Assembly: GCA_964016885.1 (NCBI GenBank)
Contig: OZ024750.1
Location: forward strand, 44,764,001-44,828,000
Length of the DNA: 64,000 nucleotides
Source of the DNA: Eledone cirrhosa
Taxonomy: Eukaryota
Reading direction: 5' to 3'
The notes under the pieces were generated by a model. That model made no database searches. It was not told where the DNA came from and was given only the letters and a program-made list of their open reading frames with translations. Below, piece after piece: positions 5,282-63,938 of this stretch. Numbering within the stretch: the stretch's first letter is position 1; every line of letters begins with the position of its first letter. A program made the position numbers and the translations under genes.

Positions 5282-5427
5282 GTAATAAAATTAAATGCGA
5301 AGACTAAAGAGGGGCTCGATAGTGATAAATTTATATCAAATATGTAAGAACACTAAAGCAAATATTTATTAATATAACATTAAAGTTTAAGCAAAGAATC
5401 GCTGCTTTCACCCTTATATATATATAT

Positions 5428-5955
5428 AATTATTTCTACTTTAGGCACAAGGCCAGCAATTACCCAGTACATTACTGGTACTTTATTTTATCGACCCCCA
5501 TAAGGATGAAAGGCAAAGTTAACCTCGACGGGATTTGAACTCAGACCGTAAAGGGACGTAACTATGGTGCAAAGCATGGAGTCCAACCCTCTATCGATAC
5601 TGCCAATTCACCGCCCTGTGTGAGTATGTGTGTTATTCATTTGTATTATATATGCGGAGGTTGACTTTGTCTTTCATCCTTACGGGGGTCGATAAAATAA
5701 AGTACCAGTAATGCACTGGTTTATTGCTGGCCTTGTGCCTAAAGTAGAAACAATTATATATATATATAATTGTTTCTACTTTAGGCACAAGGCCAGCAAT
5801 TATCTTTGCATTACTGGTACTTTATTTTATCGACCCCGTAAGGATGAAAGGCAAAGTTAACCTCGGCGGGATTTGAACTCAGATCATAAAGGGACGTAAC
5901 TATGCTAGAATGCATGGCGTCCAACCATCTACCGATACTGCCAATTCACTGCCCT
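5428..5955. mobile_element. SINE family 1 x3: 5428-5617(-), 5656-5756(+, partial), 5767-5955(-)
   Basis: Consensus match with A/B boxes and tail. Confidence 0.9.
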
Positions 5956-7849
5956 ATATATATATATAATACAAATGAATAACACACACACTCACACATA
6001 CAAACTACATCCAACGCACACACACACACACACATATATATACATATATGCACACACAATTCACTGTATTGAATCATTGATTATAATCACAAGGCTTTAG
6101 TCTCAGCAAAATACAAACGGAACGAGAAATTTAAAACTATTTTCTTTCTCGAAGGTAAGAACAAAACTTGAAAAGAATGAAACATCGTTCTTTTGATTTC
6201 TTTCTTATTTTTGCGTGTATTTCCTCAAGTCTTTTACCTAATATCATCATTTTACATCATTCTGCTTTTAGCAAAATGTGCGCCGTTTAAATCTAATTTC
6301 GTTCATTGAAGTTAGGGCCACTTCTTGACATTCAAGTTAATTGTTTTGTAATGTTGCGTGAACACTCACAATGGTGATGAGTTTTGTGTGTGTGTGTGTT
6401 TGTGTGTGTGCGTGAGAGTGTATGTGGGTGAGTTTGTGTGTATGTGTGTGTGTGAGTGTGTGTGTGTATGTGTGTGTTTGTGTGTATGCGTGAGTGTGTG
6501 TGAGTGTGTTTGTGTATGTGTAAGTGTGTATGTGTATATGTGTGTGTTTTCTCTCTCATTTTTTTTTCATTTTCAGTTTACTACTTTCATTTTCTTACAG
6601 CGAATTTATTATCGTTATTATTATTATTATTATTATTACTATTATCATTATTATTATTGTTATTATTTTATTATTATTATTTTTGTTATTATTATTATTA
6701 TTATTATAATTGTTAGTATTATTATTGTTATGGTTGTCTTTTTTTTTTTGGCTGTTTTACTGTTGTAGGTGGGAACAACATCCTGGAAATTAATTCCACG
6801 AAAGAATTTACATTTATTCATTCTTCAATGTGTTGAATGTATTACATCAATCTTACTTATAGGTGTCTTCTTGATTAACTTGATGATGAAAAAAGAAGGA
6901 ATTTTAGGAATCTCCGACTAATGTTAACTTAGTAGTCTTTTATTCAGAAAAAAAGTTTTTTTTTTTTGGATTTAACTTACATTTCTAGTCGAATCCTGCC
7001 GTTTTTTTATGTCTTTTTTGTTCCTTTTACTTCACTTAGAAATAGTGAAAATAGAATAGTTTTGCTGTACACTGTTTTAGAAGGCCTGTTCCAATGTGCT
7101 ACGGTATCTATTGAAGCTACAATTCGTGAAAAAGCCATTTGTCTTCTTGTTGAGATCTATTAAAAGCGTAAAACTAAATTTAATCGATTATCCACCCTAC
7201 CACTATAGACGGCTTATGCTTCAAAGAAAATGTGAAGGCAGAATCGTTAGTGGTTTGGATAAAAACTTCTTGGTCTATGTATTTATGTTCAGCGTTCAAA
7301 TCTTCCATGTTTGATTTTAGCATTGGTAACGCATGAACCAGGCAAGAGCAAAGCTTCATTTAATTACTTTGACGCTACACTCCGCCAGTTGCAGACTACG
7401 CATCAACATGATATATTTTTCTCCAGAAAGTTCTATGACTAACAGCAGAGTTTAAAGAGCAAACATTAACATGAAAAAGTCACCTTAAAGATTCGTTGTA
7501 CAGAGGAGGCCACCTCCAGACCCTCGAAGAGTGAACAGGAGGGTACACCACCAGCGCCAGGCGGATGTGACAGCTATGACTAGGGGATCACACCAGCAAC
7601 CTCGGACTGGTTTGATTTATACGAATAGAAGAAACACCCAGTCAAAGAAAAAGCCCTCAATTACCGGAATACCAACTCTCTTGATACGCTATATCAATTA
7701 GTGAATATTTTATAAATTAATACTATTATAAATTGTTCAAACGAATGGCTGTCTATGTCAAAACTCAGATGGAAAATTATCATATCGAAAATGATGTTGC
7801 CTGGCATAGTTTTACTCAAAGAAGGATTTGGCGTTATTTTAAGCTCTCC

Positions 7850-8680: not shown

Positions 8681-9162
8681 TAAATTCATAATAGGATGTA
8701 TATAATGTTTTACAGAAAAAATGAATGCCATTTTTATAGCAACTATGTCAACAATTGTGTAAACAACTGAAACTAAATTGGCTGGAATAAGACAAAATAT
8801 TACATTTTTAATACATTTAAATTCTAATTTTAGTAGACATTGTTAAATTAACACAGGCAGAGCTCATAGCTGAAGAATACAAAAGAAAACACAAGTGCTG
8901 AAAATGTAAATGTAAATGAAGGAAAACAATAATAACAAAGCGTATGAGAAAGAAAGAAGAACAAACAACATTTTCCAAATTTGCGACCTTTGTGGGTCAT
9001 AATAACAGGAATCTGTTTAAAGGAAAGACTTTGTATATGGAGAAAATGGACAAAGTATGGGTGTTGTCTGGTTTAAATGATATGTCGCCAGGGTGTCACT
9101 ACGACTCTATTGATATCTATGGGGACAGTAAGAAAAAGGTGTGACATACCTCTATTTTACAA

Positions 9163-9970
9163 ATAATTGTTTCTACTTTTGGTACAAGGCCAGCAATTAA
9201 CCAGTGCATTACTGGTACTTTATTTTATCGCTGCCGTCAGGATGAAAGGCAAAGTTAACATCGGCGGGATTTGAACTCAGAATGTCAAGGGCCGTAACTC
9301 TATGCGCCAAAGCATGGCGTCCGACCCTCTACCTATACTGCCAATGAAGATGACAACTAAGGAGAATGTGTGTTGTGGGAGTTGTCGGAATTACAGTGTT
9401 GGGTATACATGGTGCATTATCCTCATCATCTTCATCCACATTATTATTATTATTATTATGCTTTCCAGCATAGTTACGTCCCTTTACGATCTGAGTTCAA
9501 ATCCCGCCGAGGTTGACCTTGCCTTTCATCCTTATGGACTCGATAAAATAAAGTACCAGTAATGCACTGGGTAATTGCTGGCCTTGTGCCTAAAGTAGAA
9601 ACAATTATTATTATTATTAGGGTGATGGATTGGCAGTATCGGTAGATAGTCGGACACCATACTTTGCAGCATAGAGTTACTGTCCTTTACGGTCTGAGTT
9701 CAAATCGTCGAGGTTAACTTGGCCTTTCATCCTTGCGGGGTCGATAAAATAAAGTACCAGTAATGTACTGGGGTCGATTTAATCTACTTTCCTTTCGACC
9801 CAAATTACTGGCTTTGTGCCTCTACTAGAAACCACGGCCCTTTACGGTTTGAGTTCAAATCCCGTCGAGGTTAACTTTGCTTTTCATCCTTATGGGGTCG
9901 ATAAAATAAAGTACCAGTAATGTACTGATAATTGCTGGCCTTTTGCCAAAAGTAGAAACAATTATTATCA
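9163..9970. mobile_element. SINE family 1 x4: 9163-9343(-), 9457-9620, 9620-9833, 9834-9970(+)
   Basis: Consensus match; short and long subfamilies alternate. Confidence 0.9.
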
Positions 9971-12738: not shown

Positions 12739-13130
12739 CGTGTGTGTATACAGACATACATACACACTCACAGACATATATATATATACACATATAAATG
12801 ATATGAAATGTAATATTCAGCTAATTGTATAAATACACAAACACAAACACACATTCACACACACTCATACACATAAAACACAAACACACACATACACATA
12901 TATGTATATATAATTTACTTTCCTTTCGTCTCTGTGTGTGTGTATGTGTGCATGTGTCTGTGCAAGTGTGTACGTGTGTATGGCTGTGTATGTATGAAAT
13001 TCAGTTTAACTGTTCGAATACAAATGTATCATTTTATAAAGATTGCTGAACGTTTTATAAAGATATTTTAATTAATCTAAGTTTTGCAAATTTAAATTTG
13101 ACTACAAAATATATAAAAACACAGCTTAAC

Positions 13131-13840
13131 TAATAATTGTTTCTACTTTTGGCACAAGGCCAGCAATTACTCCGTGCATTACTGGTACTTTATGTTATCG
13201 ACCCCTTAAGGATGAAAGGCAAAGTTAACCTCGGCGGGATTTGAACTCAGAAAGGCAAGGACCGTAACTCCATGCGTGAAAGCATGGCGTCCGACCCTAT
13301 CCCGATACTGCGAATAACTAATAATTGTTTCTACTTTAGGCACAAGGCCAGCAATTACCCAGTGCATTACTGGTACATTATTTTATCGACCCCGTAAGGA
13401 TGAAAGGCGAAGTCAACCTCAGCGGGATTTGAACTATAAAGGGACGTAACTATGCTGGAAAGCATGGCGTCTGACCCTCTACCGATACTGCCAATCCTAA
13501 TAATGGTTTCTATTTTAGTCAGAAGTCGATCAATTTGAATGAGAAGTGAAAGTCGTTTCAAACGATCCCAGTGCATTACTGGTACTTTGCTTTATCGACC
13601 CCGTAAAGATGAATGGCAAAGTTAAGCTCAGCGGGAGTTAAACTCAGATGGTAAAATGACGTAACTACAGCTCAACTAATAATTGTTTCTACTTTTGGCA
13701 CAAGGCCAGCAATTAACCTAGTGCATTACTGGTACTTTATTTTATCGACCCTGTAAGGATGAAAGGCAAAGTTAACCTCGGCGGGATTTGAACTCAGAAC
13801 GTAAAGGGACGTAACTATGCTGGAAAGCATGGCGTCCGAC
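13131..13840 (-). mobile_element. Four tandem SINE family 1 copies
   Basis: Copies at ~13131, 13319, 13497 and 13677, each starting taataat(t/g)gtttcta. Confidence 0.9.
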
Positions 13841-15344: not shown

Positions 15345-15751
15345 TATCAATGATATTAAATAAATGGAAACTATATTTATGAAACCATATTTATTTTATT
15401 ATATATATTTCAAGGGTACCAACATTTTGGTACGCTCTCATCAGATAAAATACAAAATTTGTTTTATAAATGGTGAACCTAGACCTTATCCAAACTGAAC
15501 CTGAACAGATATGGTCTGTTTTCTTGGGTATGTCACCATTTATAAAACAAATTTTGTATTTTATCTGATGAGAGCGTACCAAAATGTTGGTACCTTTGAA
15601 ATATATATAATAATATAAATATAGTTTTATAAATATAGTTTCCGTTTTTTTAATATCATTGATATTATGCTCCAGAAAAAACTGTAGAGTGCTTCGTATT
15701 TGTTATGAATATATCTGTTGAATTAACAACAAATTAAATATCCCTTTGCTT
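15345..15751. mobile_element. Head-to-head palindromic hammerhead element (family B) in (TA)n
   Basis: Inverted arms ~15345-15480 and ~15530-15664. Hammerheads at 15392-15452(-) and 15557-15617(+): tattttat-CTGATGA-gagc gtaccaa aatg ttggtac cctt-GAAA-tatata-TA-ataaaata. The longer right arm carries GAGTGCTT. Confidence 0.85.
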
Positions 15752-15935
15752 ATATATATATATAAACATATATATATAGATATTTTTCCATTTCTCCGAG
15801 GGTTATAAACCCCACTATCAGGCTAGAAATTTCTTTAGTCTAAAATACGGTGAAAGCTTATAATTTCTAATTTCTAATTTCAAACTCGCGCACGGTTTCA
15901 AAAACATACTTACATGTTTACGTTTATAATTTGCT

Positions 15936-26242: not shown

Positions 26243-26557
26243 GGAAAGGTTCAGGACCCCCGACGGCAGAGCTCCAGCCGTTTCGACGGCTATTCTGGAC
26301 TATATTAGATTGTTAGCGTTGTAATAATATCTATAAAAATAAATAAATAAATATATATATATATATATAACGGAGGATATGTGGTAAGGAACCAGGTGGA
26401 CCATAACGCACCAAAGTACTCAATACTTAGGGTAGTAGAGTGGGTAATAGGAACGAGTAGGACCCTGACGGCTGAGCTCAAGCCGTTTCGACGATAATTC
26501 AGTCCAGAATTAGCCGTCGAAACGGCTTGAGCTCAGCCGTCGGGGTCCTACTCGTTC

Positions 26558-31082: not shown

Positions 31083-31427
31083 GAGTTAAACAAGATTCAA
31101 TGAGTACATCAAAGAATGAGTCTTACAGTAGATTGGAAGCACTCTACGAAAAATAATTTTCCAGAGTTATTAATATTAATATTAATAAAATAGATGTTAT
31201 TTTGATCAATTACATTTTATTATACATATTTCGGATGTACAACAGTACGTTCTCATCAGACAACCACCTTGATTAAATCTCAACCATTTAACATCTCAGG
31301 GTATGTCATGTATCATTACATTTTATCTGATGAGGACGTACTGTTTTACATCCGAAATATGTATAATGAAATGTAATTGATCAAAAGAACATCTATTTTA
31401 TTAATATTTGTATTTTAATATATTAAT
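31079..31427. mobile_element. Palindromic hammerhead element (family B-related) in (TA)n
   Basis: Plus-strand HHR at 31315-31377: attacattttat-CTGATGA-gga cgta ctgttt taca tcc-GAAA-tatgta-TA-atgaaatgtaat (12-bp stem I). Inverted copy at ~31205-31263. Confidence 0.85.
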
Positions 31428-32614: not shown

Positions 32615-32787
32615 CGAGGTGTGGTAAGAAACCAGATGGACCCTAACGCACCAGAGTACTCAATACTTAGGCTAGTAGAGTGGGTAATAGGAAAATGTTT
32701 GACCCCGACGACAGGGCTCAAGCCCTTTCGACGGAAATAGCCGTCAACACGGCTTCAGCTCTGCCGTCGGGGTCAAACATTTTCCTA
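32612..32787. mobile_element. Family G palindromic element in (TA)n
   Basis: gtggtaagaaaccagatggacc..gagtactcaatactta..gaccccgacg, plus an inverted arm ending ggggtcaaacattttcc. Confidence 0.8.
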
Positions 32788-36027: not shown

Positions 36028-36031
<4 letters not shown>

Positions 36032-36392
36032 CACCGTATGTTTGACTAAAGAAACTTTAGCCTGATAATGGGGTTTAGAAGCCTCAGATAAATGGAAAAA
36101 GATGAGTATTGACGTACATGGGAGTCGAACACACATCTTTGGTTATCCAGACCACTGTGCTACTATTACACCAACACATCATGTGATGTGTTGGTGTAAT
36201 GGTAGCACAGTGGTCTGGATAACCAAAGATGTGTGTTCGACTCCCATGTACGTCAATACTCATCTTTTTCCATTTATCTGAGGCTTCTAAACCCCATTAT
36301 CAGGCTAAAATTTCTTTAGTCAAAAATACGGTTAAATTTATTCTATTTTCTAATTTCAAACCTGCTCACTGTTTCAAAACATACTTACTTGT
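36028..36392. mobile_element. Head-to-head palindrome of a tRNA-headed SINE-like element in (TA)n; other copies at 15781-15915 and ~57560-57760
   Basis: Arms 36028-36181 and 36184-36339. 36185-36255 folds as a cloverleaf with A box TGGTGTAATGG and B box GTTCGACTC. Confidence 0.85.
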
Positions 36393-37074: not shown

Positions 37075-37336
37075 ACAAAGGAAATGTGGTAAGGAACCAG
37101 ATGGACCATAACGCACCAGAGTACTCCATACTTAGGGTAGTAGAGTGGCAAATAGGAAAAAGTATGACCCCGACGGCAGAGCTCAAGCCGTTTAGACGGC
37201 TATTTCTGGACTAAATTAGAATTTTTAGCCTGGTGAATAAATAGGGCTATTTATTCACCAGGCTAAACATTCCAATTTAGTCCAGAAATAGCCGTCGTAA
37301 CGCCTTCAGCCCTGCCGTCGGTGTCATACTTTTTTC

Positions 37337-39894: not shown

Positions 39895-40050
39895 TAGGAA
39901 AATGTTTGACTCCGACGGCAGAGATCAAGCTTATTCCACGAACGGCTTGAGCTCTGCCGCCGGGGTCAAACATTTTTCCTATTACCCTAAGTATTGAGTA
40001 CTCTGGTGTGTTATGGTCTATCTGGTTCCTTACCACACCTCCTTCATTAT
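39895..40050. mobile_element. Family G palindromic element (opposite orientation)
   Basis: ggaaaatgtttgactccgacggcagag..ctctgccgccggggtcaaacatttttcc..gagtactctggtg..ccttaccac. Confidence 0.8.
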
Positions 40051-44937: not shown

Positions 44938-45254
44938 GCGGTGGATTGGCAGTATCCCGCCGAGGTTAACTTTGCCTTTCATCCTTACGGGGTCGATAAA
45001 ATAAAGTACCAGTAATGCACTGGGTAATTGCTGGCCTTGTGCCTAAAGTAGAAACAATTATATATAATTGTTTCTACATGTGGCACAAGGCCAGCAATTA
45101 CCCAGTACATTACTAGTACTTTCTTTTATCGACCCCGTTAGGATGAAAGGCAAAGTTAACCTCGGCGGGATTTGAACTCAGACTGTAAAGGGACGTAACT
45201 ATGCTAGAAAGCATGGCGTCCAACCCTCTACCGATACTGCCAATTCACCGCCCT
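44938..45254. mobile_element. Tail-to-tail nested SINE family 1 pair
   Basis: Plus copy 44938-45060 and minus copy 45065-45254, with nested TSDs. Confidence 0.9.
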
Positions 45255-45704
45255 TTATTAGGTATTATATATAATATTAATTAAAATATTTAAAGAGAAC
45301 ACACATAGAAGGAAAGATTCAATTTATTTGTATGCAGTATGGTATATTAAATTTACAGAATACTCTATGTTGAGCGCAGTTCTAATCTCTATATTTTGGT
45401 TGATGTTCATTATCTTTCGAGCCGCTAAGTTAGGGACTATGATGGGAAACTAACATATTCAATTTTTTTTTAATTGTACACACAACCACAAACCCTCACA
45501 CACGTACAAATGCCCACACAGGAGTGCGTAGAAACACGCCTGCACGCAGACACTTTCCTCAGGATTTCCTTGAATGAAGCAGTTCTATTCATGTAGAAGC
45601 CATTTCTTCATAAAATGTTGTATATACTCTACTAATGTATTGTGTACCTTACTTACTGTGGCTATTCCCGATGGAACACGGGACTCTCTCTCTCTCTCTC
45701 TCTC

Positions 45705-51642: not shown

Positions 51643-51685
<43 letters not shown>

Positions 51686-51838
51686 ATAAATGCTCTGAAA
51701 TAGCGATATATATGTGAATATAGACATAGAATATTCGAAAATATTCTGTATGTTTATAATAAACATTTTGAAGACCTAATCGCTATAGAATAGAATACGT
51801 CACGTATTACAATTAGATTCTCGATAAAAGCAAGGGAA

Positions 51839-51881
51839 GTAATCTACGCGTTTCATTCTCGTTAGAAATCATCAGGACTAC
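51839..51881 (-). ncRNA. Type I hammerhead ribozyme in the inverted leading unit
   Basis: Exact reverse complement of the array hammerhead (gtaatctacgcgtttcattctcgttagaaatcatcaggactac). Confidence 0.85.
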
Positions 51882-52266
51882 ATATCCAGTGCTTTTATCG
51901 AGAATGACACAGCTAGAGACTTATAGAATACTTAGCTGTGTACAGGAACTGGTTTGAAAGAGCGGTTGCCGGTCCGGCAGAAATTAGAAATTGGAATAAA
52001 TGCTCTGAAATAGCGATATATATGTGAATATAGACATAGAATATTCGATCTATAGCGATTAGGTCTTCAAAATGTTTATTATAAACATACAGAATATTTT
52101 CGAATATTCTATGTCTATATTCACATATATATCGCTATTTCAGAGCATTTATTCCAATTTCTAATTTCTGCCGGACCGGCAACCGCTCTTTCAAACCAGT
52201 TCCTGTACACAGCTAAGTATTCTATAAGTCTCTAGCTGTGTCATTCTCGATAAAAGCACTGGATAT

Positions 52267-52309
52267 GTAGTCCTGATGATTTCTAACGAGAATGAAACGC
52301 GTAGATTAC
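52267..52309 (+). ncRNA. Type I hammerhead ribozyme (first of 10 plus-strand copies, every 310 bp)
   Basis: GTAGTC-CTGATGA-T TTCT AACG AGAA T-GAAA-CGCG-TA-GATTAC. Stem I is GTAGTC/GATTAC, stem II is TTCT/AGAA, and stem III is the palindrome ACGCGT. The GUA triplet predicts a cut after 52303. Stem I is extended by GGA/TCC and ATTCTCGATAAAAGCA/TGCTTTTATCGAGAAT. Confidence 0.85.
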
Positions 52310-55219
52310 TTCCCTTGCTTTTATCGAGAATCTAATTGTAATACGTGACGTATTCTATTCTATAGCGATTAGGTCTTCAAAATGTTTATTATAAACATAC
52401 AGAATATTTTCGAATATTCTATGTCTATATTCACATATATATCGCTATTTCAGAGCATTTATTCCAATTTCTAATTTCTGCCGGACCGGCAACCGCTCTT
52501 TCAAACCAGTTCCTGTACACAGCTAAGTATTCTATAAGTCTCTAGCTGTGTCATTCTCGATAAAAGCACTGGATATGTAGTCCTGATGATTTCTAACGAG
52601 AATGAAACGCGTAGATTACTTCCCTTGCTTTTATCGAGAATCTAATTGTAATACGTGACGTATTCTATTCTATAGCGATTAGGTCTTCAAAATGTTTATT
52701 ATAAACATACAGAATATTTTCGAATATTCTATGTCTATATTCACATATATATCGCTATTTCAGAGCATTTATTCCAATTTCTAATTTCTGCCGGACCGGC
52801 AACCGCTCTTTCAAACCAGTTCCTGTACACAGCTAAGTATTCTATAAGTCTCTAGCTGTGTCATTCTCGATAAAAGCACTGGATATGTAGTCCTGATGAT
52901 TTCTAACGAGAATGAAACGCGTAGATTACTTCCCTTGCTTTTATCGAGAATCTAATTGTAATACGTGACGTATTCTATTCTATAGCGATTAGGTCTTCAA
53001 AATGTTTATTATAAACATACAGAATATTTTCGAATATTCTATGTCTATATTCACATATATATCGCTATTTCAGAGCATTTATTCCAATTTCTAATTTCTG
53101 CCGGACCGGCAACCGCTCTTTCAAACCAGTTCCTGTACACAGCTAAGTATTCTATAAGTCTCTAGCTGTGTCATTCTCGATAAAAGCACTGGATATGTAG
53201 TCCTGATGATTTCTAACGAGAATGAAACGCGTAGATTACTTCCCTTGCTTTTATCGAGAATCTAATTGTAATACGTGACGTATTCTATTCTATAGCGATT
53301 AGGTCTTCAAAATGTTTATTATAAACATACAGAATATTTTCGAATATTCTATGTCTATATTCACATATATATCGCTATTTCAGAGCATTTATTCCAATTT
53401 CTAATTTCTGCCGGACCGGCAACCGCTCTTTCAAACCAGTTCCTGTACACAGCTAAGTATTCTATAAGTCTCTAGCTGTGTCATTCTCGATAAAAGCACT
53501 GGATATGTAGTCCTGATGATTTCTAACGAGAATGAAACGCGTAGATTACTTCCCTTGCTTTTATCGAGAATCTAATTGTAATACGTGACGTATTCTATTC
53601 TATAGCGATTAGGTCTTCAAAATGTTTATTATAAACATACAGAATATTTTCGAATATTCTATGTCTATATTCACATATATATCGCTATTTCAGAGCATTT
53701 ATTCCAATTTCTAATTTCTGCCGGACCGGCAACCGCTCTTTCAAACCAGTTCCTGTACACAGCTAAGTATTCTATAAGTCTCTAGCTGTGTCATTCTCGA
53801 TAAAAGCACTGGATATGTAGTCCTGATGATTTCTAACGAGAATGAAACGCGTAGATTACTTCCCTTGCTTTTATCGAGAATCTAATTGTAATACGTGACG
53901 TATTCTATTCTATAGCGATTAGGTCTTCAAAATGTTTATTATAAACATACAGAATATTTTCGAATATTCTATGTCTATATTCACATATATATCGCTATTT
54001 CAGAGCATTTATTCCAATTTCTAATTTCTGCCGGACCGGCAACCGCTCTTTCAAACCAGTTCCTGTACACAGCTAAGTATTCTATAAGTCTCTAGCTGTG
54101 TCATTCTCGATAAAAGCACTGGATATGTAGTCCTGATGATTTCTAACGAGAATGAAACGCGTAGATTACTTCCCTTGCTTTTATCGAGAATCTAATTGTA
54201 ATACGTGACGTATTCTATTCTATAGCGATTAGGTCTTCAAAATGTTTATTATAAACATACAGAATATTTTCGAATATTCTATGTCTATATTCACATATAT
54301 ATCGCTATTTCAGAGCATTTATTCCAATTTCTAATTTCTGCCGGACCGGCAACCGCTCTTTCAAACCAGTTCCTGTACACAGCTAAGTATTCTATAAGTC
54401 TCTAGCTGTGTCATTCTCGATAAAAGCACTGGATATGTAGTCCTGATGATTTCTAACGAGAATGAAACGCGTAGATTACTTCCCTTGCTTTTATCGAGAA
54501 TCTAATTGTAATACGTGACGTATTCTATTCTATAGCGATTAGGTCTTCAAAATGTTTATTATAAACATACAGAATATTTTCGAATATTCTATGTCTATAT
54601 TCACATATATATCGCTATTTCAGAGCATTTATTCCAATTTCTAATTTCTGCCGGACCGGCAACCGCTCTTTCAAACCAGTTCCTGTACACAGCTAAGTAT
54701 TCTATAAGTCTCTAGCTGTGTCATTCTCGATAAAAGCACTGGATATGTAGTCCTGATGATTTCTAACGAGAATGAAACGCGTAGATTACTTCCCTTGCTT
54801 TTATCGAGAATCTAATTGTAATACGTGACGTATTCTATTCTATAGCGATTAGGTCTTCAAAATGTTTATTATAAACATACAGAATATTTTCGAATATTCT
54901 ATGTCTATATTCACATATATATCGCTATTTCAGAGCATTTATTCCAATTTCTAATTTCTGCCGGACCGGCAACCGCTCTTTCAAACCAGTTCCTGTACAC
55001 AGCTAAGTATTCTATAAGTCTCTAGCTGTGTCATTCTCGATAAAAGCACTGGATATGTAGTCCTGATGATTTCTAACGAGAATGAAACGCGTAGATTACT
55101 TCCCTTGCTTTTATCGAGAATCTAATTGTAATACGTGACGTATTCTATTCTATAGCGATTAGGTCTTCAAAATGTTTATTATAAACATACAGAATATTTT
55201 CGAATATTCTATGTCTATA

Positions 55220-55280
<61 letters not shown>

Positions 55281-55482: not shown

Positions 55483-55928
55483 AAATGACATTAATTAACG
55501 GAAACTATATTTGTAAAACCATATTTATTCTATTATATATATTTCAAGGGTACCAAAACTTTGGTACGCTCTCATCAGATAAAATACAAAATGTGTTTTA
55601 TAAATAGTGACATAACCAGGAATCAGACATTAACGGTGCAGGTTCAGTTTGGATAGTGAGAGGAGAGAAGAACCTGAACCCTTAAGGTCTGAATCCTGGT
55701 TATGTCACTATTTATAAAACAAATTTTGTATTTTATCTGATGAGAGCGTACCAAAGTTTTGGTACCCTTGAAATATATATAATAGAATAAATATGTTTTT
55801 ATAAATATAGTTTCCATTTATTTAATATCATTGAATATTATTCTCCAGAAAACTTGTCGAGTGCTCTGAATCAGTTATTAACATTTATATTTGTTGAATT
55901 ACCAACAAATTAAATATCTCTTTACTTA
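55483..55928. mobile_element. Palindromic hammerhead element, family B
   Basis: HHRs at 55526-55586(-) and 55729-55789(+). Closely similar to 15345-15751, including GAGTGCTC in the long arm. Confidence 0.85.
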
Positions 55929-55933
55929 TATAT

Positions 55934-56570
55934 GCAAAGTTTTATTTAAATTATTGGGTTACAACGAGTAAATATTTATAACTGATATAAAAGCACTCAA
56001 CAAGTATTTGGAGTATATTTACGATATTAAATAAATGGAAACTATATTTATAAAACCATATTTATTTCATTATATATATTTCAGGGATATCATATTAAAA
56101 ATATGTTATGCCTTCCTCAGACAAAATACAATATAAACAGTCTTATAAATAGATAGATTTGACATACCTTACAACTTCAACTTCCATTTAAAAAGTTGAT
56201 TTGGTAGTGAAAAATTTTAGGGACAGTTATCTATCTCTCTCTGTTTCTTTACATGAATTTCTTCTCTCTATCTATCTCTCTATATCTATCTCTCTCTGTT
56301 TAGTTGCATGCATTTCTTCTTTTTCTTCGCTTTTTTTCCTTTCTTTCTTTTTATAACTGTCCCTAACATTTTTCACTACCAAATCAACTTTTTAAATGGA
56401 AGTTGAAGTTGTAAGGTATGTCAAATCTATCTATTTATAAGACTGTTTATATTGTATTTTGTCTGAAGAAGGTATACCATATTTTTAATATGATATCCCT
56501 GAAATATATATAATGAAATAAATATGGTTTTATAAATATAGTTTCCATTTATTTAATATCTTTACTTATA
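55934..56570. mobile_element. Palindromic hammerhead element, family B variant
   Basis: Arms ~56023-56230 and ~56353-56560. HHRs at 56063-56128(-, CTGAGGA) and 56455-56520(+, CTGAAGA) with a catatt ttt aatatg stem II. Confidence 0.8.
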
Positions 56571-57387: not shown

Positions 57388-58255
57388 GAACAAAATTGCA
57401 AATGGTTACTGACATTGAAAAGATCTACACAAAAATCATTAGTTTAATGCTTATGGGAAAAAGCAAAAGATCGCTCAACATATCGGGCGCTGGTCCTTCA
57501 TCATGAAAGAGTGAAATTAAGATTGAGATGTTGCCAGAAGGGATAAAGCGGAAACAAAGATGCAATATGTTTAGCACAATGGTATGGATACCCTAACATG
57601 TTGGTTCGACGCCCATATACGTCAATACTAATCTTTTTACCATTTCTTAGAGGGTTCTAAAAACCACTATCAGGCTAAATTTTCTTTAGTAAAAAATACG
57701 GCGAAAGCTTCTATGTCTAAGTTCAAACTCACTTGGTGTTTCAAAACATACTTACTTGAATTAAGTATGTTGTGATAAGGTTTGGAAGTTATTTCTAAAA
57801 TGTGGCATTGCCTCGTGTTTTAACTTGTATCGTATTTGTTAAATTCTCTTTTTAAGTAGTAATATTGTTTGGTCTTATATCATAACAAAGATGGCGTAAT
57901 TTGCCGTAGAAGGGAAGTGTGCTGTAGAAGGAAAGGAATTCGAAACTAAAAACAAATACTTTTAATAGCATTTATGAGATATATATATATATATATATAT
58001 TTACTCATAAATTCATATATACAGAAATATCAAAGGTATTATTCCTACAAGATTATTACAATTTGATGCCATATAAGATTCGGTACACAAATATTCCCCA
58101 AAGAACAATACCTATACAATTCAATATATATTCTCTTCTCAAATGTTAAAGTTCATATAAATACGTACACACGTATATATTGATAAATATATTTATCTCT
58201 CTCTTTCTCTCTCCCACGCTCTTTCTCTCTCTATATATATATTTATATATATATA

Positions 58256-62611: not shown

Positions 62612-63165
62612 CATTTAGTTACATATAGATATATTTAGATATATAGGAGTGTATATACAATTTATATATTCAATACACCGCTTTTTTCTCATGCTTTGTC
62701 AAAACTACTTTTTCTCATGCTTTGTCAAAACTACTTTTACATCCGTATGAAAAGTAAAAGTACAACAATATTGAAACATGTTTCAGAGGATGTCGTACAA
62801 ATATGTACATAGTACATACCGGTACACACGAAACACACACATGCACTCACACACAAATACCCACTTATACACACACGTGTAACCATACATACCCACACTC
62901 ACTCACATGTATATATATACAGTATATTCACGTGCATACATCACAGAAACCTTTATGATATAAGGTTTAGGCTAACAATGTTAAACTTGTTTCTGTGAGA
63001 AAAATATTATTGACTGATGAAGCGGATTTGTCGATATTGAAAATGGCTGAAGGACAAAATCTTTTAAAGAAATTTATTTTCAAACGGAAGCATTATGATA
63101 ACTGATAACTTTACATACGTATTTTACCCTGAGACAAATAACACAGTATTATATGTATGGCAGTA

Positions 63166-63938
63166 AGGGCGGTGAATTGGCAGTATCGGTAGAGGGTTGG
63201 ACGCCATGCTTTCTAGCATAGTTACGTCCCTTTACAGTCTGAGTTCAAATCCCGCCAAGGTTAACTTTACCATTCATCCTTACGGGGTCGATAAAATAAA
63301 GTACCTGTAATGTACTGGGTAATTGCTGGCCTTGTGCCTAAAGTAGAAACAATTATATGTATGGCAGTATCAGTAAAGGGTCGGACGCCATGCTTTGACG
63401 CAAAGAGTCACGTCCCTTTACGATCTGAGTTCAAATGCCGCCGAGGTTAACTTTGCCTTTCATCCTTACGGGGTCGATAAAATAAAGTACCAGTAATGTA
63501 CTGGGTAATTGCTGGCCTTGTGCCAAAAGTAGAAACAATTATATGTATGGGCGATTGATTATCAGTATTGGTAGAGGTTCGGACGCTATGCTTTGCAGCA
63601 TAGAGTTACGCCCCTTTACGGTCTGAGTTCAAATCCCGCCGAGGTTAACTTTGCCTTTCATCTTTACGGGGCCAACAAAATAAAGTACCACTAACGTAAT
63701 CGGGTCGATTTAATCGACTTTCCCCTCCCCCCAAATTACTGGCCTTGTGTCTATACTAGAAACCATTTATTAGTTATGGCCCTTTACGGTCTGAGTTCAA
63801 ATCCCGCCGAAAATAGCTTTGCCTTTCATCATTACGGAGCCAATAAAATAAAGCAGCAGTGACATACTAGTGTCAATTTAATCGACTTTCCCCTCGGATT
63901 CAAATTACTGGCTTTGTCCCTAAAGCAGAAAGAATTAT
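63166..63938 (+). mobile_element. Four stacked SINE family 1 copies
   Basis: Copies at 63166, 63362, 63549 and 63771, with a repeated TSD attatatgtatgg(cagta). Confidence 0.9.

Follow-up and report, generated by a model that had tools for sequence, protein, structure and literature searches.

The head-to-head tandem array described here belongs to a family of more than a thousand young insertions of a 310-bp unit in the genome of Eledone cirrhosa, nearly all of which are paired back-to-back arrays, and it lies in a window of 64,000 nucleotides (the whole stretch of DNA analysed, contig OZ024750.1). The unit is interpreted, with a probability of roughly 0.65, as a non-autonomous retrozyme copied from a single, probably circular RNA by a borrowed Penelope-type reverse transcriptase (RT)/GIY-YIG enzyme that primes on both strands of a (TA)n microsatellite. 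The broader component of this interpretation, two-sided priming of the Penelope-like element (PLE) type in one event, is held with considerable confidence. Its most specific form is put forward tentatively, at a little short of even odds: a double rolling-circle target-primed reverse transcription, in which a PLE RT dimer on one ribozyme-made RNA circle would lay two concatemeric cDNAs onto the cut ends of the microsatellite.

The array in the window and its genomic family

The unit is numbered from window position 52049 (unit position 1). Comparison with the array identifies the segment 51680-52048 as the exact reverse complement (369/369 bases) of unit positions 52-310 followed by 1-110, and it abuts the 10.24 units of the plus array, all ten full units of which are identical to one another, without any foreign base between the arms. 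The junction is blunt, with neither inserted bases nor microhomology, and its exact string occurs once in the 3.0-Gb, microsatellite-rich genome. The sequence-only reading had placed about 1.2 reversed units directly before position 52049, with hammerheads pointing outward on both sides and (TA)n at both ends, and is borne out in each particular, as the single hammerhead motif on the minus strand and the ten on the plus strand all read outward and (TA)n adjoins the array at 51647-51681 and from 55224. The geometry that it proposed for about 370 bp of potential double-stranded RNA also holds, the fold-back being an asymmetric one in which 51680-52048 would pair with 52100-52468 over 369 bp around a loop of 51 nt. 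The outer ends are unequal, the left one lying at unit 110 and the right one at unit 75, and both flanks are (TA)n, a sequence in which a target-site duplication is not readable. The G+C content of the unit is approximately 0.34; the array has no protein frame (no stop-to-stop frame of 110 amino acids or more) and the element carries no RT/GIY-YIG ORF. The junction contains a GATC, but a restriction-ligation scar was rejected as its explanation, the site being absent from both parent positions.

Table 1. Coordinates of the array, of other repeats in the window and of related repeats at other loci (plain numbers are window positions).
Feature	Position	Strand	Basis
Left (TA)n target microsatellite	51647..51679		Sequence
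Arm in reverse orientation, 1.19 units long (unit 52 to 310 to 110), ending outward at the 'long' site, unit 110	51680..52048	-	369/369 identity
35-bp tail (unit 76-110) that is terminal in the inverted arm and not in the other, equivalent to the one-sided tail of PLEs	51680..51714	-	Sequence; passages of PMC8557442 and PMC11167929
Hammerhead motif (type I) in the inverted arm, with a cut predicted between 51845 and 51844	51839..51881	-	Core CUGAUGA...GAAAC and helices
Head-to-head junction, blunt, unique in the genome	52048..52049		Sequence, exact genome match
51-nt unpaired loop of the potential fold-back	52049..52099	+	Fold-back geometry
Plus arm, 10.24 identical 310-bp units; outer end at the 'short' site, unit 75	52049..55223	+	Sequence
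Type I hammerhead motif, the first of ten on the plus strand at a period of 310, with a weak, palindromic helix III and a cut predicted at 52303/52304	52267..52309	+	Core, helices, variant constraint
Right (TA)n target microsatellite, then (TGTA)n	55224..55268		Sequence
Small palindromes of one family, one arm longer, TA flanks	26374-26557, 32616-32785, 37078-37334, 39899-40044		
Palindromes with one arm longer and a hammerhead-like core	15348-15747, 55484-55923		
SINE-like clusters	5414-5972, 9156-9968, 13126-13840, 44954-45276, 63146-63938		
Older sibling repeats, one with a unit of ~321 bp	L047:1480-2010, L096:5850-6720, L143:2430-2870		

Genome counts rest on exact-pattern matches, which number 4,054 for the hammerhead core and 973 and 671 for outer ends at unit 110 and unit 75, respectively; since about 60% of the bilateral loci have an exact 110 end, approximately 1,600 insertions are estimated genome-wide. 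The 110-anchored sample took in the first 100 loci whose outer end matches unit 110 exactly, every one of them on contig C1. Ninety-four of these are bilateral and divergent, with differing junctions, while the other six comprise one locus with a second arm of 15 bp, three single-armed loci, one assembly gap and one locus continuing beyond the fetched length. An additional 29 loci anchored at unit 75 include 25 bilateral and three single-armed ones and one undetermined, and, where loci were picked by the hammerhead core, nine of the first 10 are head-to-head. Inverted heads are thus the norm among the other genomic copies, and their junction positions are variable. Single arms were seen at seven loci (L034, L064, L082, L085, L193, L201 and L220). 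Median arm lengths are 4.4 and 3.1 units, the longest arm has 27 units, and the lengths of the two arms within a locus are weakly correlated (rho 0.30, p 0.004, n=90). The earlier comparison with the inverted pLTRs of PLEs therefore stands as regards the presence of an inverted head, but the head is not a fixed pLTR, being instead a second full arm of less than 0.3 to more than 24 units. With over 1,000 near-perfect palindromes, some of several kb, the genome may carry in this family a potential source of double-stranded RNA and of instability.

Other repeats in the window were also inspected. The head-to-head geometry that the sequence-only reading attributed to the small palindromes of the window, with a longer arm and TA flanks, is present in several of them, but they are not homologous to the unit. 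Hammerhead-like cores occur in four head-to-head palindromes, namely the two listed in Table 1 and those at 31188-31398 and 56023-56560, which are probably truncated PLE pLTR insertions. Head-to-head tRNA-like units with TA on both sides lie at 36030-36336 (Rfam tRNA at 36110-36180 on the minus strand and 36185-36255 on the plus strand), with related pieces at 15784-15859 and 57572-57758, which together represent a tRNA-headed element of the same inverted geometry. An abundant SINE-like family of about 200 bp forms tandem and inverted clusters with short TA runs between the copies.

The unit was also encountered in sequencing runs of 17 other organisms (16 studies), in which 29-47% of the words of 52049-52358 are present. 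Runs X4, X7 and X10 each gave a single clean contig (331-340 nt), identical to the unit over the pieces listed, the X10 contig wrapping round like a circle, and a Hi-C run of the organism of X4 gave no unit reads (about 1 in 100 sampled, 1,938 million letters). Carry-over of a very abundant molecule between libraries is the likeliest explanation, and a cross-species mobile circle may be another.

End sites, junctions and haplotypes

All 118 resolved loci (91 of the 110-anchored sample, 25 of the 75-anchored sample and two core-picked) have one short end (~75) and one long end (~110), on either side. The partner arm ends at unit 69-84 in every one of the 91 loci anchored at unit 110, and at unit 108-117 in the 25 anchored at unit 75 and in L037 and L039; L102 is bilateral with its partner end unscored. 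The unselected partner ends adjoin sequence that is TA-rich over 20 bp in 82 of 91 cases, and the remaining nine start with ATAT. A tail of 30-40 bp at one end only has been described for PLEs (Craig 2021, PMC8557442), and two RT start sites are reported to bound the PLE tail, the enzyme, a predicted dimer, cutting and extending both strands (Frangieh 2024, PMC11167929). The unequal ends of the present family match this one-sided tail and its two start sites.

Autonomous RT and GIY-YIG ORFs are present elsewhere in the genome, and one of them (L172), with a CX4CxxC linker, is read from its sequence as Neptune-like. Among eight inverted pairs inspected at PLE loci, four (L181, L183, L187 and L190) have a one-sided tail and TA at both ends and L189 has a tail-like stretch after its TA run, while L178, L186 and L191 are without a clear pattern. 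The mechanistic tie to PLEs drawn by the sequence-only reading is upheld by this geometry in autonomous elements, together with the prevalence of inverted heads, the one-sided tail and the (TA)n flanks. A search for an autonomous partner carrying the unit sequence, performed with blastn and with nhmmer, using a profile built on the conserved core, in 50 PLE loci (from 150 scored matches, 10,596 candidates), found none, its matches being separate, independent sibling insertions or TA runs. Sibling repeats of greater age (Table 1), with an identity of about 65-70% to the unit, agree with it in head-to-head geometry and in both end sites, and are most conserved in the part corresponding to unit 4-117. 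Near PLE copies, other tandem repeats (about 450-510 bp; L173:6510-7419 and L182:7718-10000) contain hammerhead-like cores and are, on sequence features, putative further retrozyme-like families of this genome. A short inverted insertion at L181:8005-8206 and L188:3630-3830, with a hammerhead core close to that of the 310-bp unit and other flanks, stops just after the ribozyme.

Junction positions cover the whole unit, with a slight departure from uniformity (KS p 0.02). The ribozyme cut site has no excess of junction ends (5/180 against 5.2 expected); a linear monomer template would be expected to enrich them there. The 90 junctions comprise 25 with inserts, three inside the internal hairpins of the unit and 62 others; leaving out the first two classes, microhomology of at least 2 nt is present at 40 of 62 against 18% by chance (p 2e-15), and eight of 62 are blunt. 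Such microhomology fits the annealing of two same-polarity cDNAs by their 3' ends, as in L1 twin priming, but with fixed start sites. Templated inserts or repeated strand switches characterise complex junctions at L042:6483-6660, L035:4956-4975, L134:7551-7677 and L086:8226, which suggests iterative annealing of two cDNA ends.

Sequence variation provides information on the templates. Seventy-three loci have a full unit in each arm, and 28 haplotypes were distinguished among them, 20 of which were seen once in the sample and are nevertheless fixed across both arms. The two arms carry the same haplotype at 71 of the 73 loci, against a random agreement of 0.11, and the two exceptions are junction-edge calls. 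Private single-unit variants number 111 (leaving out L047, L050, L086, L116, L118 and L133 on account of junction alignment artefacts), and 66 of them lie in a register covered by the other arm and are absent there, although private variants may post-date the insertion, which weakens the test based on unshared variants. Counts of private variants per 10 kb give no sign that the haplotype of the window is younger than the rest (4.5 against 3.9-5.5). New haplotypes are fixed over at least 20 units in both arms of L093 and L104. Four loci are heterogeneous. In L087 the two outer units of both arms are of one haplotype and the rest of another, the switch occurring after the second unit, and in L071 one variant is common to the outer unit of both arms. 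L063, whose arms start on different haplotypes, and L054, which carries one 7-unit periodic duplication, are mixed in ways beyond a single monomer circle. These four patterns need a heterogeneous multimer or a template switch, and those of L087 and L071 also argue for both arms reading one molecule in register.

The hammerhead, the proposed cycle and its alternatives

Each unit contains a hammerhead motif with the core CUGAUGA...GAAAC, helix I at 219-224/256-261 and helix II at 233-236/241-244, helix III being a weak two-pair palindrome and the cut being predicted after unit 255. Rfam does not call it at threshold, the best match, Hammerhead_HH9, scoring 15.8 bits (E 0.08) where the cut-off is 52, and the identification as a type I hammerhead is based on the conserved core and on the constraint on variants; Rfam miRNA matches were dismissed as hairpin noise. 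In loci picked by tail sequence and not by ribozyme, all nine fixed (inherited) substitutions in the hammerhead are compatible with the fold, compared with two of 15 private ones (Fisher p 4e-5) and 32% of all possible substitutions, and they fall at a variable core position, in loop II or at wobble or improved pairs. Thus, the templates that leave descendants appear to need a working hammerhead, and the fold appears to be under selection, which would favour cleavage and circularisation as steps of the cycle. The dispensability of the hammerhead for insertion of an anole PLE in vitro (PMC11167929) and the lack of cleavage in eight of nine Xenopus retrozyme dimers (bioRxiv 10.64898/2026.07.22.740005) count against a need for the ribozyme. 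Neither the isolated hammerhead (z -1.0) nor the tail region (z 0.3) folds better than shuffles, while the unit folded as a circle has a predicted z of -4.4 against 100 shuffles. Conservation of the predicted circle fold outside the hammerhead is unconvincing, the fixed variants including nine that keep pairs, nine that break them and nine at unpaired positions (private variants: 12, 46 and 37, respectively).

The following cycle is proposed. Transcripts of the array would cleave themselves, probably as dimers in view of the weak palindromic helix III, and then circularise. A PLE protein dimer would bind the conserved unit 4-117 with one active site at each start site, the two being about 35 nt apart. 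The (TA)n target would be cut on both strands, one strand priming at ~110 and the other at ~75, and both sites would reverse-transcribe round the template for several turns with strand displacement, giving arms of random length. The 3' ends of the cDNAs would meet mostly by microhomology of 1-6 nt, sometimes bluntly as in the window or with templated inserts, and the joined ends would prime the second strand of each other. In a minority of events the template may be a heterogeneous multimer or may be switched.

One alternative retains the same two-sided PLE priming and takes as the usual template an uncleaved linear multimer from a homogeneous array, circles being rare or absent. It is favoured by L087 and L071, whose two arms are heterogeneous in the same register; the absence of stops at the cut site is just as compatible with uncleaved RNA, unprocessed RNA predominates among the substrates of the anole PLE in vitro (PMC11167929), and a few loci favour linear templates. 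As a general account it is nonetheless unlikely, as the uniform long arms of L093 and L104 would need a monomer bottleneck and regrowth of length, the 66 unshared private variants stand against one or two shared cases, and the selection on the hammerhead fold would be left aside. Decidedly improbable is a dual priming, proposed for L1 (PMC2837659), in which the two strands copy different RNA molecules and the arms match only by virtue of one haplotype dominating the cell. The modest arm-length correlation and the different starting haplotypes of the L063 arms are in its favour, but it is at odds with the strictness of the one-short, one-long rule, with the in-register haplotype switch in both arms of L087 and with the concordance of the arms even for rare haplotypes.

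Growth of the arrays after insertion would offer another route, in which unequal crossover later expands either a DNA fold-back or a short inverted insertion of PLE type locally into satellite-like arrays; expansion of this kind has been discussed by Li et al. 2026 (bioRxiv 10.64898/2026.07.22.740005). The periodic duplication in L054 and the wide variation of arm length could be explained in this manner, but private variants are nearly all single-unit and periodic ones are absent from most sampled loci, both arms are long and concordant with fixed ends, and a fold-back would yield equal, mirrored ends; this origin is accorded very little weight. Palindromes are also prone to artefacts, and none of the contig pieces listed from three runs of the best-matching sample (27 of 158) bridges the window junction, where flank depth is about 4. 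That the inversion is a fold-back chimera or an assembly artefact is nonetheless scarcely credible, given that the flanks are not mirrored, the two ends lie at different conserved sites and this architecture recurs with distinct junctions at more than 120 other loci; in run X1, short contigs contain 15 further arm-arm joints, each of them singly weak, with short sides of 20-29 nt. Copying of one probably circular RNA from two fixed start sites remains the preferred interpretation, and the arrays, if its double rolling-circle form is correct, would constitute direct genomic records of circular-RNA retrotransposition in animals.

Relation to known systems

Retrozymes, their proposed circular intermediates, the link to PLEs and the inversions of Penelope elements are already known, whereas the quantified end rule was not found in print. 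Head-to-head retrozyme arrays, the one-short, one-long rule and common haplotypes of the arms were likewise not found in the literature searched, although supplements or older PLE papers may anticipate them. For metazoan retrozymes, RT on circular RNA giving multi-unit cDNA has been proposed, with PLEs as the likely mobiliser (PMC7229834; PMC7761336; bioRxiv 10.64898/2026.07.22.740005), the circular route and the mobilising enzyme both being proposals without insertion-level evidence in these sources (PMC7229834; Li 2026). The present family resembles the metazoan non-LTR retrozymes, as portrayed in these sources, in its tandem unit of about 300 bp, low G+C content, non-coding nature and a single type I hammerhead, weak in helix III, in every unit. 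In contrast to the head-to-tail tandems described there, nearly all insertions here are two divergent concatemers with fixed unequal ends; Cervera and de la Pena (2020; PMC7229834) use none of the words 'inverted', 'opposite' and 'polarity' in their main text. Since the family is young and has many haplotypes, it provides countable footprints of the start site of each arm, of the use of one or two RNAs and of ribozyme selection, which turn questions about PLE structure and the retrozyme route into defined biochemical tests.

Non-autonomous Chlamys PLEs such as MRC1 are similar in being PLE derivatives with multicopy head-to-tail insertions (PMC8557442), but the same account gives them 3' ends in common with known autonomous partners, of which none was found here in 50 PLE loci, and describes them as mostly lacking canonical hammerheads. 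LINE-1 twin or dual priming (PMC2837659) has in common with the proposed cycle the primers on opposite strands, the head-to-head joining of two cDNAs and the microhomology at junctions. In L1, as outlined in that source, the first primer anneals to the poly(A) and the second internally, so that the arms are different parts of a linear mRNA, whereas the array has two fixed starts separated by about 35 nt, the unit recurs many times in the arms and this structure is the usual one. A LINE-1 twin-priming product was rejected for the present array, which has no poly(A), has both starts fixed and repeats the whole unit in both arms.

The closest correspondence is with the endonuclease-bearing PLEs (Neptune, Naiad and Poseidon), which have an inverted 5'-truncated arm, a tail at one end and (TA)n targeting, the target preference being reported for Neptune and Naiad, and which use two RT start sites with extension of both strands (PMC11167929). 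The origin of the tandem and inverted structure of PLEs has been called undefined (PMC8557442), and the relevant passages of PMC8557442 and PMC11167929 contain no statement of a different start site for each arm or of one template for both. The present element differs from these PLEs in being a 310-bp element without an ORF, both arms of which are long concatemers of the small unit. If the double rolling-circle form of the cycle is correct, the same geometry on a linear RNA would explain the inverted pLTR and the one-sided tail of all endonuclease-bearing PLEs.
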